Positions 4,911 to 8,110 of a DNA stretch of 40,921 nt are shown piece by piece. The stretch's first letter is position 1, and each line of letters starts with the position of its first letter. Position numbers and translations under genes: made by a program. This stretch comes from a virus, in UHGV virus genome UHGV-0093931. One strand, written 5' to 3'. The notes beneath the pieces are model-generated. The model searched no databases, was not told the DNA's origin, and saw nothing but the letters and a program-made list of their open reading frames with translations.

Positions 4911-5681
4911 TCAGCAGATCGCGGAATTCATTGGCGATCTCTTCTTCCTGGGCTTCAAGTTGGACGATGCGCAGAACAAAGCGGGTTCATCGCTGGTCAG
5001 CAGGCTGTTACGCAAGCTAAAACGTCGTTCGCCCAGACCTTCATACGGCACACATTTGAATTCAAACGCCACAGGCATTACGTCTTTGCTGCTTGCTTCA
5101 ACGCTTTGCATCAGCGATTTTTTACCAGCGAAATCACCAGTTTCATGGTCCTGCTGGGTTGCTTGCTGAATAGTGATACGACGCACAGCCTGAGCTGCCT
5201 GGGAAATCTGCATCGTATTGCCATCAGCATCAAACGCCAGCAGGTAATCGCTCCAGTCTTCCAGCCATTCGGCGATTTGCTTTTGCTTCAGACGTTGACC
5301 ATCGATCTGCAGTAACGCGCGGAAGGGCGCGGTTTTCTTCAGGGTGATCGAAGCAACGTTATCGGCGTGACCGGGATTATCCAGGTTGCCGATGTTGAAC
5401 ACTGAACGGGCGGTCATGTTGTCAGCGTCAATGAAGCAACGTGCTGGCTCACTGTCGCTGGCGTAACCTTTAGAATAACGTGCGAAATCGTCAATACTGG
5501 TTGTTGTCATTGCACCACGGAAGCGGAAACGCTCCAGAGAAAAGCGCTCAAGGCTTTCAACGCTAGTACCATCTGGCAGCAATGCGGTCGGGCAAGCCAG
5601 GCCATGAATATCATTCAGGTGGTAGCCAGAAAGGACCAGGTCTTTTACCTGCTGAAATGTACCGCTGTCTAACTGAGACAT
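4911..5681 (-). CDS. YfdQ-like (DUF2303-type) prophage protein, apparently frameshifted near the 3' end
   Basis: 256-aa ORF; a protein-like continuation (...[39 protein letters not shown]) is open in another frame down to a TAA at 4855-4857. Family call is from memory. Confidence 0.6.
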
Positions 5682-5737
5682 AGAAATTCCTTATTAACTG
5701 ATGATCGAAGTGGTATCAGTGAGTTTGTTGTTGCGGA

Positions 5738-6109
5738 TCACTGAGCCGCTTTAAGCTTTCCATCCACCGCGCCAGTGATCCCGAACAACTGACCCTGATC
5801 TTCCTGCAGGATGGTGAGCTTCCCGCCTTTGTTGACCCACATCGGGGTTTCGGTTGTGTCCTCTTCGGAGGCTTTACCACGCGGTGTTGGGGTGCTGTAG
5901 TTCAGCTTGTGCTTGATCTTGACGCGCTTCTCTTCAACGGAATTACCCATGCGCTCAAAATCAAATGTGAGGACTACTTTGCCTTTGTTGCCGTTGTTCA
6001 GAACGCCAAGCGCGGTGGTATTAAGTGCTGCCGCGATTTTGTTCATGAACACGCCGGCATCCAGTTCGCCAAGAAAATCTGGCACTACGGTCATGCGGTC
6101 ATTACTCAT
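5738..6109 (-). CDS. hypothetical prophage early protein (YfdP-like position)
   Basis: 123-aa ORF; GAGGG RBS upstream of the ATG at 6107-6109; first clear gene after the noncoding region downstream of the putative pL. Confidence 0.6.
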   Translation of the reverse strand: MSNDRMTVVPDFLGELDAGVFMNKIAAALNTTALGVLNNGNKGKVVLTFDFERMGNSVEEKRVKIKHKLNYSTPTPRGKASEEDTTETPMWVNKGGKLTILQEDQGQLFGITGAVDGKLKAAQ

Positions 6110-6270
6110 GGTTTTACCCTCGTTAAGGCGGCTGCAACCGCCGAACTTTCTCCATACACAACAGAGAAGAGCACCTGCATTGGTCGGCGGCTTGCAGGGA
6201 CCGCTTTCTTTTTGCCCGGGTGGATTGGGTTATGAGCCCGTCGCCCGGTGATGCTCTTTTCTGTTGCGTA

Positions 6271-6340
6271 AAAAGGGCGGTACCGAGGTAGAACATTATC
6301 TTCGTCCCCCTTGCATAAGGTTGAAGGCCCAGGTACCGCC
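6271..6340 (-). terminator. candidate terminator-like structure on the leftward transcript
   Basis: Plus-strand GGGCGGTACC (6276-6285) pairs with GGTACCGCC (6332-6340) around an inner CCTT-ATGC-AAGG hairpin; on the minus strand the structure is followed by a U-run (plus-strand AAAAA at 6271-6275). The loop is large for a classical intrinsic terminator. Confidence 0.3.
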
Positions 6341-7289
6341 AAGACTACACACATGGAACTACGGTTATCACAGTCCTCAGCGTGATTTGGTTGTGGTTGC
6401 TGGTGCTGAACTCCAGCTCAGTGGCGCGGTGTTTCAATATCGTAACCGCCCGTTCCATCCGCGTTCGATCAGTCCGTATGCTCGCTTAGAACGTTTCGCC
6501 TGCTTATCTTTTCTCAACCGTTTGACGGTCAGCCCCGCCATTCACCACAACGAAGAGAGCACTGCCGGTATCCGAATTGAACGGACCTTTTCGTTGCCCA
6601 TCACCGCTATCTGTATAGCGGTGGCAGGGATTGAACCTGCCGTTATGCCTTGCTCGTCAATGCTCTCATCGTTGTGTGCTGACCTTACAGCCAGCATGGT
6701 TGGAATGAAGACGCATCACGACTTTTCACCAACTGGGCGGGATCACCATGAAAGAGCCGCCCCTTTAGCCTTTCATGCTCCCCATCTTTCTAGGTAGTCA
6801 ATGCCTCCAGTTGGGCATACAACCTTCGGTTATCGCTCCGTCGTCAGCGCCACTCTCCAGGACATTTATAAGGACCGTCTCCAAGTGGTAACTCTTCCAG
6901 TCCCGGTAAGCATCCTGCGAGATGCTTACCATGACCGGCTGATCTTCCCTGAAAAAGGCTGGCGGTTACCGGACAAACGGGAAAACACCGGGCCGCCAGA
7001 ACAGGGAGTTACTTGTTATTGCTTTGGCCTGCTTTTAACCACATCAGGCGCGGTGGTAGGTATCTTCGGGCGGGGTGCTAAGGGGGTGATTAGCCCTTGC
7101 CCTTAACACTCCTGCTGGTTTTGGTATTCCTGGCTTGGGTATCGCCACCAGCTATAGGAATTTGACTACGAGTTGCGGTTAATCAGGCCGCGCCTCTGTT
7201 ACCCCTCCCGAAGACACCTGTCAGCGAATCATCCGGTTATTCATATGCCACCGGCGGCTACTTCGTGGGCGTCCTGCCTGTTCGCTGTT

Positions 7290-7381
7290 GATGAATAAAA
7301 TCTAACTTAACTTAGCTTTTAGATCAAGAAAAAACACCAAACTATTCTTAGCTTGATGTTAAGAGGAAGGTTAGAGGTGGG
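7290..7381 (-). promoter_or_regulatory. putative OL/pL region
   Basis: AT-rich segment just downstream of cI; minus strand reads TTGATC-17 nt-TAGATT; the 14-mer CTAACTTAACTTAG resembles the CTAAGCAATCTTAG palindrome in the cI-cro intergenic region. Confidence 0.45.
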
Positions 7382-8008
7382 TTAAAGCTCGTACTGAACG
7401 CCTTTGACAACGCCGATGATCAGGCAATTACCGTTAATTGAAATGTTTGGATAGCGTGGATTTAAGGGAACTAAGAACTTTTGAGGCCCATCGATGACAA
7501 GTTTTTTTACAGTAGCCTCGTTTGTCCCATCAAGCCTGGCTACGACTATCTTTCCATGAAGTGGCTCTGCATCTGGATCTACTATGACTGTTGCCCCTTC
7601 AGGGATTGTCGGGAGGCCATTAGGGTTTGTCATCGAATCACCTTTAACCTCCAATGCAAAGGAGCTATCCCCTATGCGGAGTGATGTCTCTATCCACTTA
7701 TCTACTTCGCTGAAAACTTCTGCTGCTTTACATTCTGTAAACTGTCCAGCCTGAACCCAGGATATCACCGGAATCCTTCGCATCTTGGTTATCAGATTGC
7801 CTTCAAATTCAGTGCCATAAAGTATGTAATCAATTGATGTGTTGAAATACTTTGCAAGTTTCGCAAGTGACTCGCCTCCAGGCACATTAACGTCTTTTTC
7901 CCAATACCCAACCGCCACATCACTAACACCGCAGAACTTACCCAGTTCTTTCTGCGAGGTTTTGGTTATGCGCCTGAGAGCTTTGATGCGCTGACCGACA
8001 GTTTCCAT
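7382..8008 (-). CDS. cI: CI-type repressor (XRE-family HTH with LexA-like S24 peptidase domain)
   Basis: 208 aa; N-terminal HTH (...TSQKELGKFCGVSDVAVGYWE...) and C-terminal autocleavage-type domain; divergent from a cro-like gene. Confidence 0.9.
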   Translation of the reverse strand: METVGQRIKALRRITKTSQKELGKFCGVSDVAVGYWEKDVNVPGGESLAKLAKYFNTSIDYILYGTEFEGNLITKMRRIPVISWVQAGQFTECKAAEVFSEVDKWIETSLRIGDSSFALEVKGDSMTNPNGLPTIPEGATVIVDPDAEPLHGKIVVARLDGTNEATVKKLVIDGPQKFLVPLNPRYPNISINGNCLIIGVVKGVQYEL

Positions 8009-8110
8009 TTGAACACCATAAATAAATTAAAAGGCTAAGCAATCTTAGTTTTTATTGACCAAAGTTAGATTGGTTATTAATATCTAATCAAACTTAGCTA
8101 AGGAGGCGTT
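8009..8110. promoter_or_regulatory. putative OR operator/promoter region (pRM/pR)
   Basis: Palindromes CTAAGCAATCTTAG (8035-8048), TAGAT-N11-ATCTA (8066-8086) and CTTAGCTAAG (8093-8102); plus-strand TTGACC (8055-8060), 17-nt spacer, TAATAT (8078-8083) ahead of cro. Confidence 0.55.

Follow-up and report, generated by a model that had tools for sequence, protein, structure and literature searches.

A 1.2-kb stretch downstream of the predicted pL promoter in virus genome UHGV-0093931 is very probably a noncoding array of exchangeable structured RNA modules

What fills the 1.2 kilobases (kb) between the predicted promoter pL and the first early-left gene of virus genome UHGV-0093931? The whole stretch of 40,921 nucleotides (nt) analysed here is referred to as the window, and an earlier note had singled out its positions 6110-7300 as hairpin-rich and devoid of open reading frames (ORFs), proposing a large structured RNA, an RNA-based antitermination element or a decayed gene block as explanations. 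We find that 6110-7300 is an array of at least seven independently conserved and independently shuffling RNA modules, which from pL onwards are F, G, E, D, C, B, A2 and A1 and recombine as units among hundreds of enterobacterial phages. That the region is a noncoding array of structured RNAs is hardly in doubt. The complete reading, by which these 1.2 kb stand untranslated at the start of the pL transcript in a lambdoid prophage of SfV/ST64B type and are processed as an array of RNA genes, has a probability that we put at about two in three.

Homologues were gathered by BLAST from phage genomes, from 5426 complete E. coli genomes and from IMG/VR. In these comparisons the region breaks up into blocks, each of which matches different phages and is conserved at 80-97% in many of them. 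The 120 listed IMG/VR loci, which were fetched with a 20-mer from module D and are a lower bound on occurrence, feature 32 different combinations or orders of blocks. A 20-mer from the D1 core is present without mismatch in at least 120 IMG/VR contigs, in five of the 5426 E. coli genomes and, among species-representative genomes, only in Citrobacter, Phytobacter (three prophages) and Kosakonia. Matches covering the F and/or the A1 block were found in about 1538 of the 5426 complete E. coli genomes, and the hosts of matching entries in the phage database comprise Escherichia, Shigella, Salmonella, Klebsiella, Citrobacter, Edwardsiella, Providencia and Yersinia. In Phytobacter ursingii ATCC 27989 the invariant D1 core resides on three separate contigs (L260, L261 and L262), so that three prophages with such arrays are present in this strain.

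Similar module combinations occur outside the lambdoid phages. The epsilon15-like Uetakeviruses PAT1 (L004 3251-3835), SPN9TCW (L007 2428-2634) and Kp4865-1 (L011) carry D, a cassette, a DicF-like element and transfer RNA (tRNA)-Arg(UCU), and their arrays are situated on the strand opposite to the terminase and portal genes, a niche quite unlike pL. Other arrays also feature a punctuation hairpin of the type UGACA-[4-5 bp]-GAAGAGA/GAAGUAGA/GAAAGA-[stem]-ACA (stem length in base pairs, bp), with 133 occurrences bearing the UGACA flank; it resembles boxB and is located upstream of D1 and of cassettes (IMG/VR, e.g., L013, L034 and L058).

The modules are real RNA structures, as evidenced by covariation in F, C and D1 including its pseudoknot and by compensatory pairs in D2. 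The alignment of homologues that had been recommended as a means of telling compensatory base changes from random decay has thus been carried out, and in F, C, D1 and D2 it is the former that we see. Module D (6678-6943, minus strand) combines D1 and D2; its invariant core of 57 nt has a covarying hairpin and a pseudoknot at its flanks. In D1 (6827-6943, minus strand), hairpin P1 (6930-6905) is followed by the core (6904-6848), by P3 (6849-6834) and by a pseudoknot pairing 6840-6838 with 6829-6827. The core, GGGACUGGAAGAGUUACCACUUGGAGACGGUCCUUAUAAAUGUCCUGGAGAGUGGCG, shows next to no differences, if any, among about 90 contexts that have otherwise diverged. Both hairpins as well as the pseudoknot covary, with 89.9% paired and a score of 0.344 versus 0.163 (0/500) for 89 distinct flanks. 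The pseudoknot joins the P3 loop to the four bases after AUAAC, and three of its four pairs change on both sides. Whether the core is an antisense or mimic of the ribosomal RNA (rRNA) operon was also considered and rejected, the best duplex being no better than those of shuffled cores.

D2 (6678-6826, minus strand) contains another pseudoknot (GUUG/AUGCC/CAAC/GGCAU) as well as three more helices, and its terminal hairpin is GCUGGC-UGUAAG-GUCAGC. The complete module D is 89% identical over 288 nt (6943-6657) to a copy in Salmonella virus PAT1, which is placed in the gap between the terminase and portal genes. Between the two copies, D2 helices have changed in a compensatory manner from GGGCGG/CCGCCC to AGGCAG/CUGCCU, from CAUGAAAG/CUUUCAUG to CCUGAAAG/CUUUCAGG and from GUUG/CAAC to GUCG/CGAC.

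Module C (6547-6675, minus strand) is a 129-nt cassette closed by an 18-bp stem, ACAACGAuGAGAGCAUUG/CAGUGCUCUCuUCGUUGU. Its cargo consists of two hairpins that resemble tRNA T-arms and have perfect T-loop sequences, and of a variable 9-bp hairpin stacked on the first of them. In 22 homologues pairing amounts to 94%, 11 pairs change on both sides and the score is 0.254 versus 0.110 (0/500). The stem contains U-G wobbles in 16 sequences and G-U wobbles in six, which would be A-C mismatches on the other strand. As these wobbles are tolerated on the minus strand only, selection acts on the minus-strand RNA. The first T-arm, GCAGGUUCAAUCCCUGC, is nearly the same as the T-arm GCAGGUUCGAAUCCUGC of the tRNA-Arg found in arrays. 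Still, C is not a tRNA: ARAGORN reports no gene in the window and the Rfam tRNA model has no match at E<=10 in 5600-7800. The cassette is present in Citrobacter, Klebsiella, Edwardsiella, Stx2a and SPN1S-like phages and, unannotated, in 79 of the 5426 E. coli genomes, while PAT1 has kept the stem and replaced the cargo.

A second cassette, module A1 (6158-6267, minus strand), has the stem GCAACAGAAAAGAGCAUC/GGUGCUCUUCUCUGUUGU enclosing CACCGGGCGACGGGCUCAUAACCCAAUCCACCCGGGC..., and its minimum-free-energy fold (-49.6 kcal/mol) contains a 20-bp stem. SfV, Stx2a phages and E. coli prophages have copies with 91-96% identity, and the existence of variants that are 106, 109 or 110 nt long rules out coding. 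C and A1 belong to a family with a stem of about 18-20 bp that reads, with variants, 5'-ACAAC-(N)-GGAAAGAGCAYUG...CAGUGCUCUUUCC-GUUGU-3' around a freely variable interior. We counted 81 distinct cassettes of 64-135 nt with more than 20 types of cargo, which share ACAAC..AGAGCA/UGCUCU..GUUGU. A possible role of the cassette 3' strands as functional boxA was rejected; they have only UGCUCUUU in common with boxA, and they are base-paired.

Genuine tRNA genes are close neighbors of these elements. In 13-14 of 60 loci a tRNA-Arg(UCU) gene lies 230-700 nt beyond D1 and has the same orientation, it starts inside the last bases of a cassette stem in other arrays, and in SPN9TCW it adjoins C. In locus L029 (6637-6760) an Rfam tRNA match that ARAGORN does not call spans 124 nt, which makes it a tRNA-like gene with an insertion of about 50 nt, and is located immediately behind a C cassette and ahead of a normal tRNA-Arg(UCU). 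Imperfect bracketing duplexes of about 20 bp, as in RNase III processing stems of the rrn, T7 or dicF type, are present in C (18 bp), A1 (20 bp) and G (26 bp). It is rather likely that the cassette stems serve as RNase III sites, as a homologous stem in the Qin prophage coincides with a published RNase III end.

This Qin stem leads to module A2 (6270-6358, minus strand), a presumed divergent member of the DicF family of small RNAs (sRNAs), made up of a single-stranded stretch and a terminator. DicF itself blocks cell division; it binds Hfq and represses the translation of ftsZ. The conserved single-stranded part reads AUGUGUGUAGUCUUGGCGG / (GC)UGUGUGUAGUCUUGGCGG, and the terminator GGCGGUACC...GGUACCGCCC-UUUUU carries a 48-nt loop insertion; its stem extensions covary among 37 distinct versions in related loci. 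For a covariance model, R2, we used 17 relatives of A2 and left out DicF and the window copy. R2 scores 6270-6358 of the window at 40.6 bits (E 2e-8), finds the annotated dicF of strain K-12 exactly (L256 2882-2940; 33.5 bits, E 1e-6) and also detects copies in SfV, PAT1 and a Stx2a phage. Like DicF, A2 lies in an early operon leaving a lambdoid immunity region, with its 3' end at a terminator GGCGG..CCGCCC-U5. These similarities make A2 a likely DicF relative, and its product is probably a DicF-like, Hfq-dependent base-pairing sRNA. In the Qin dicBF leader a cassette AUAACGCGAAAGCGCAUGG...CCGUGCGCUUCCGGUUGUGG is situated at L256 2673-2758, about 130 nt upstream of DicF, and its stem AUAACGCGAAAGCGCAUGG/CCGUGCGCUUCCGGUUGUGG is nearly identical to that of array cassettes, AUGAAAGCGCAUUCC/GGAGUGCGCUUCCAGUUGUGG. 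A DicF species of 190 nt has a 5' end made by RNase III (PMC10448788), and when 190 nt are measured off from the 3' terminus of DicF (2935-190+1), this 5' end falls, by length arithmetic, at L256 2746, inside the 3' strand of the stem (2735-2758).

Module F (7222-7287, minus strand) is a 66-nt 5' leader element for which we have both covariation and a covariance model, R1. It consists of stem P1 (CAGCGAA/UUCGCUG), an invariant AGGCAGGACGCCCACGAAGUAGC, stem P2 (CCGGU/ACCGG) with the conserved loop GGCAUAUGAAUA, and a final GAUGA. In 101 distinct homologues 95.6% of cells are paired versus 74.3% in shuffles, the covariation score amounts to 0.531 versus 0.140 (0/500; slid controls <=0.12), and 10 of 14 pairs change on both sides, including 5/5 of P2. 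P1 occurs in variants such as GCGAA/UUCGC, ACGAA/UUCGU, CCACC/GGUGG and GUCAUC/GAUGAC. Model R1 recovers F at 96 bits as a single copy in the window. F begins at about +6 from the predicted start (7292), some 5 nt after it, and relatives have it at the same distance, a few nt past the start, behind quite different promoters and operators. What comes downstream varies among loci and may be a small ORF, module G, a cassette or an arrangement with boxA. A perfect boxA, GCUCUUUAACAA (rrn consensus; GCUCUUUAANA), follows F after 20-40 nt in 23 of 137 F loci, behind an A-rich run and a hairpin. Canonical boxA is confined to F loci and accompanies an RNA module in three of 18 boxA loci scored. The hairpin AAGCG-CCCUACAGGA-CGCUU precedes perfect boxA in L145, L143, L151, L172, L174, L209, L213, L234, L236 and L249; the resulting boxB-boxA order after F is the same as in rRNA leaders, and the phages in question are reported to be without N.

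The remaining modules are less well characterized. Module G (7051-7226, minus strand) is a domain with a cargo of about 124 nt, closed by a predicted long-range helix of 26 nt whose arms lie at 7226-7201 and 7076-7051. The arms of this inverted repeat, I1, are 81% complementary and the helix is part of the minimum-free-energy fold (-77 kcal/mol). The 5' arm GGUGUCUUCGGGAGGGG follows F in 18 of 126 loci, where the 3' arm is 117-132 nt away, and G looks like a second stem family with cargo of variable length. Module E (6947-7050, minus strand) ends in a terminator-like hairpin GGCGGCCCGG...CCGGUAACCGCC-AGCCUUUUU (6997-6952), which makes it a candidate for a second terminator-ended small RNA; a block 93.9% identical to it is present in an E. 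coli prophage, and E precedes D1 in about 15 IMG/VR loci. Module B (6362-6546, minus strand, about 185 nt) ends in the hairpin AUCACG-CUGAGGACU-GUGAU (6386-6367), which recurs after tRNAs in other arrays. A sequence 82% identical to B over 199 nt is found in phage 15G, with a tRNA-Met of the same orientation about 190 nt upstream of it.

Upstream, the array is flanked by a gene for a cI-type repressor with Peptidase_S24 and HTH_3 domains (7382-8008, minus strand). Directly after its stop codon, the terminator scan revealed an intrinsic terminator with 12 pairs followed by a T-run (7333-7360, minus strand). The predicted pL (7299-7327, minus strand), read from the sequence, consists of TTGATC (7327-7322), a spacer of 17 nt and TAGATT (7304-7299), with a start at about 7292, and is overlapped by the operator-like CTAAC-TTAA-CTTAG (7303-7316). 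Operator-like CTAAG-N4-CTTAG repeats occur at 7303-7316, 8036-8049 and 8085-8098, that is in the pL region and in the cI-cro intergenic region, and are consistent with oL/oR of this immunity type. On account of the cI terminator (7360-7333), of the promoter hexamers (7327-7299) and of their overlap with an operator-like repeat shared with the cI-cro region, the earlier placement of pL was a reasonable one, and it is the minus strand from which the region is read. Downstream, a 5' untranslated region (UTR; 6110-6157, minus strand) with the hairpin GGCGG-UUGCAG-CCGCC (6141-6126) and a ribosome-binding site leads into the first early-left gene (5738-6109, minus strand), a member of phrog_204, a family of unknown function. 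This gene product lacks an arginine-rich N terminus, and there is no ORF between pL and the gene. The earlier note had reported no N-like antiterminator gene anywhere in the window; the check made here covers this stretch and the first gene. The hairpins listed before are indeed present in the sequence: CACCGCTAT/ATAGCGGTG at 6609-6630, GTAAGCATC/GATGCTTAC at 6908-6931, GGCGGCTGCAACCGCC at 6126-6141, the long-range pairing GGCGGTACC...GGTACCGCC at 6340-6276 and, on the minus strand, a pair of hairpins with T-loops, GCAGG-TTCAATC-CCTGC and TCCG-TTCAATT-CGGA. The rise in GC content is only modest (0.52-0.55 versus 0.44-0.53 in the flanks).

Could the region instead be a graveyard of protein-coding genes, with rexAB- or N-like remnants? 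Lambda has genes at the equivalent map position, and relatives carry a small protein gene in the middle of the slot, orf33 in SfV and a gene for a ClpX-type zinc-finger protein in one E. coli prophage. Intact genes colinear with part of the region thus do exist, as the earlier note had envisaged for the case of degraded pseudogenes, but both are alternative insertions, flanked by these same conserved RNA ends, and not intact versions of what the window contains. A tblastn search with SfV orf33 gave no match in the window (the ClpX-zinc-finger protein was not searched). As had been noticed before, the minus strand is full of stops, with 16-20 per frame, and closed in all frames. The region does lack conserved ORFs, but a plus-strand ORF of 177 codons (6264-6797) went unmentioned. 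This ORF has no Pfam or PHROG family, its substitutions by codon position (62/26/43 in eight homologues) show no third-position excess, and all eight homologues contain frame-breaking indels. Three short ORFs overlie A1 (6123-6296, minus), C (6542-6697, minus) and E/G (6801-7106, plus) and weakly match the tiny families phrog_33599, phrog_36558 and phrog_23289 of unknown function, which are probably ORF miscalls drawn over conserved RNA. Apart from these three short and weak matches no family was found for any ORF of the region, and both the 177-residue plus-strand ORF and the small minus-strand ORFs were rejected as genes for want of family support, codon signal and unbroken frames. Blocks conserved at 80-97% with compensatory pairs across genera are the opposite of decay; together with the G-U wobbles, the missing codon-position signal and the indels they refute the proposed decayed gene block, to which we accord practically no probability.

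Three further explanations accept the sequence as functional or mobile and differ in what it does. According to the strongest of them, which is nevertheless improbable, the 1.2 kb would be a purely cis-acting regulatory 5' UTR made of terminators, antiterminators and RNase sites, with nothing acting in trans. Its position between pL and the first early-left gene, the two terminator-like hairpins inside, the conserved leader element at its start that is paired with boxA in other phages, and a last cassette adjoining the ribosome-binding site of the first gene would all fit. However, Uetakeviruses carry the same modules between terminase and portal genes and upstream of unrelated genes, the arbitrary order of modules fits ill with one regulatory logic tied to particular downstream genes, and members of such arrays include trans-acting products, namely real tRNAs and a DicF relative. 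Far less probable still is a single ornate particle of about 1 kb like GOLLD, ROOL or OLE. The many pseudoknots, T-loops and long-range helices and the location in a phage next to tRNA genes, which is also known for GOLLD and ROOL, are suggestive of it, and the minus-strand RNA is highly structured, with a local fold excess over chance of z = -6.4 for 6543-6680, around module C, and of z = -5.5 in a sliding-window scan of the region. To this extent the large structured RNA suggested by the earlier note is borne out. It is not one unit, though, since blocks are gained, lost and reordered independently (32 block orders), every block that was tested folds into a closed unit of its own, the blocks are set apart by internal terminators and by stems of the RNase III type, helices between modules did not turn up apart from the one that closes G, and no large-RNA family of Rfam matches.

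About equally remote is the idea that the cassettes are selfish DNA, with closing stems that are terminal inverted repeats of mini mobile elements or recombination sites and RNA folds that are incidental. Conserved inverted repeats of about 20 bp flanking more than 20 unrelated cargoes that shuffle among phages would be expected of such elements. The cassettes, however, all share a single orientation in one transcribed slot, the G-U pairs restricted to the minus strand and the compensatory changes point to selection on RNA, and the cargoes themselves covary. RNase III cuts the Qin homologue in vivo (PMC10448788; the placement in the stem is by length arithmetic), and neither a transposase nor a target-site duplication was seen.

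Searches for known RNA families and for other roles helped to delimit what the array may be. The covariance-model search proposed earlier was run with Rfam 15 (4227 families including GOLLD, ROOL, YrlA, C4, IsrK, riboswitches and ribozymes) and yielded no match at gathering score in the window; at E<=10 the region returned noise only (mir-30, mir-971, BLV_package) in addition to a weak DicF match. In 12 related arrays tRNA was the sole Rfam family found. Identity with tRNA or tmRNA was rejected, as ARAGORN finds no cloverleaf in the window and only the T-arm is mimicked. A CsrA sponge (22 GGA motifs observed versus 25 +/- 4 expected), antisense targets in the same phage in the style of P4/P1 (eight 12-mer matches versus about six expected, which is chance level) and a constant protein partner (the downstream genes differ among arrays and also between lambdoid phages and Uetakeviruses) were dismissed as well. 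A pair of isrK and C4 antisense RNA, as in the RNA immunity of P1/P4 type, is present in SfV (L002 5906-6094) and Stx2a_1447 (L009 4912-5100), where it sits in the pR operon beside an antirepressor; the window has no such match.

How would an array of this kind work? After derepression or infection, RNA polymerase would transcribe it from pL. RNase III would cut the closing stems of about 18-22 bp in C, A1 and probably G, RNase E would trim the products, RNase P would act where a tRNA is present, and the internal terminators in E and A2 would set defined 3' ends. The outcome would be small stable RNAs, one of them DicF-like and others, from D and C, folded RNAs of unknown target, while read-through polymerases would express the early-left genes. 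As the array would be made first after induction or infection, its RNAs are good candidates for host takeover or counter-defence.

Read-through needs an explanation of its own. On its way from pL to the first gene, polymerase meets two intrinsic terminators (those of E and A2), and terminators are annotated in SfV as well. A lambda-type nut site, that is a GCUCUUUA-like boxA with a boxB hairpin on the pL transcript, accompanied by an N gene, was not found: 6110-7300 has no GCTCTTTA on the RNA strand, and the stretch from pL to 6109 is free of ORFs. SfII, SfV and SfIV have been reported to lack N, cII and cIII (PMC3851460), and SfV and SfII carry F according to sequence matches. Long untranslated RNAs are prime substrates of Rho and are protected by complexes of boxA and Nus factors (PMC7665894). 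From its leader position, the boxA in relatives, the SfV-type phages without N, the terminators downstream and the exposure to Rho, F may be read as a processivity or antitermination element of the pL transcription complex, an assignment that we take seriously without quite favoring it. F would most likely render the elongation complex processive and resistant to Rho and to the two terminators, in a manner like that of put, the cis-acting antiterminator RNAs of HK022 and HK639 (PMC9378689), but with a different fold. In the case of put, readthrough of terminators in cis involves binding to the zinc-binding domain of the RNA polymerase beta-prime subunit. Of the options named in the earlier note, RNA-based antitermination is therefore plausible for the 66-nt F alone and not for the rest of the region.

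A number of points weigh against the reading of 6110-7300 as a processed pL leader. The promoter, its start site and all of the processing steps are predictions. The invariant 57 nt of D1 yield no covariation. Canonical boxA (GCTCTTTA) is absent from the RNA strand of 6110-7300, F is linked to Nus factors by association in other phages only, and punctuation hairpins of the type UGACA-stem-GAAGAGA-stem do not occur in the window. No similarity of F to the put RNAs of HK022/HK639 is evident by BLAST or by eye, nor does model R1 match the HK022 or HK639 loci at E<=10; F is accordingly rejected as a member of the put family and regarded as a possible functional analogue. The Rfam model for DicF (RF00039) gives A2 only 16.5 bits (E 2.4, 6275-6353) at a threshold of 48 bits, a failure that is due to the single-stranded region, which differs from DicF at 13 of 22 positions, and to the 48-nt insertion in the terminator loop. 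No target of A2 could be predicted; in the case of ftsZ, even authentic DicF did not stand apart from shuffles in RNAduplex. The link to RNase III, finally, is made through one homologous Qin stem and length arithmetic.

We could not find descriptions of F, D1, the T-arm cassette and G as RNA motifs. Going further, one may speculate about an exchangeable RNA cassette array, in which an RNase III stem displays swappable cargoes (T-arm mimics, pseudoknots, DicF-like seeds and tRNAs), F and D1, both new to the databases, stand at the head, F is a novel kind of antiterminator RNA that modifies the polymerase and relies on boxA and Nus factors in place of N, and the pseudoknotted D1 core binds an invariant host machine; taken as a whole we consider this proposal unlikely. 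If it were true, the array would equip the phage with a set of RNAs aimed at the host, serving takeover or anti-defence, and would be comparable in its organization to an integron or a CRISPR array but for structured RNAs. Early-left regulation in lambdoid phages is textbook biology, yet there is a gap in phages without N: those of the SfV/ST64B/Stx type and of the epsilon15 type have no known route past their early terminators, and F offers a compact, strongly covarying candidate. DicF, for 35 years a lone prophage sRNA, would be recast as a member of a widespread array punctuated by RNase III sites with dozens of uncharacterized cargoes, among them mimics of tRNA arms and the 57-nt sequence, which did not vary in any of the phage contigs examined. 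On a practical level, several "hypothetical proteins" and PHROG families over the modules are probably annotation artefacts.

How does the array compare with established systems? The put RNAs of HK022/HK639, reportedly described by King in 2011, resemble F in several respects. F is likewise an element of about 66-70 nt directly downstream of pL in phages without N, with terminators beyond, and unpaired conserved nucleotides are framed by covarying stems. The architectures differ, since in F a single closing stem encloses a mini-hairpin plus a second hairpin whose conserved loop has 12 nt, against two bulged stems in put. Unlike put, F is present once per phage without a copy at pR and is often followed by boxA, which put is not known to need. 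HK639 itself (L135 37910-37969) has an "M3-like RNA" annotated by the depositors after cII, besides a putL-like RNA.

GOLLD and ROOL are large phage-associated RNAs. They share with the array the ornate, pseudoknot-rich noncoding RNA in a phage next to tRNA genes and a function that is unknown, whereas the array is modular and divisible, restricted to Enterobacteriaceae and without an Rfam match. The rRNA operons, with their boxB-boxA-boxC antitermination, leader-trailer stems for RNase III and spacer tRNAs, and boxA-protected CRISPR arrays (PMC7665894, PMC10250234) are similar in that a long untranslated, structured transcript contains bracketing stems of about 20 bp and interspersed tRNAs, and relatives of the window additionally have a perfect boxA after the leader. 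The region analysed here differs by having no canonical boxA, by boxA-like UGCUCU(C)UU inside the cassette stems and by products that are not rRNA.

Of all known systems, the processed dicBF leader of the cryptic E. coli prophage Qin comes closest. DicF was reportedly described by Faubladier in 1990. In Qin, RNase III, RNase E and termination together set the RNA free (PMC10448788; PMC5069750). Both loci are noncoding, belong to the early operon that leads away from a lambdoid immunity region and precede the first genes of host takeover. In each, a cassette with this shared closing-stem sequence (..AACgcGAAAGCGCAUgg/ccGUGCGCUUCCgGUUGUGG) comes ahead of a small RNA containing UUGGCGGUA..CCGCCCUUUUU. 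In Qin, a single cassette and a single sRNA come after three small ORFs, whereas the present region has eight modules and no ORF, and Qin contains nothing that corresponds to F, G, D or the T-arm cargo. The region in the window would represent an expanded, ORF-free version of the dicF locus, and the array is a much larger variant of a processed prophage leader of the dicBF type.

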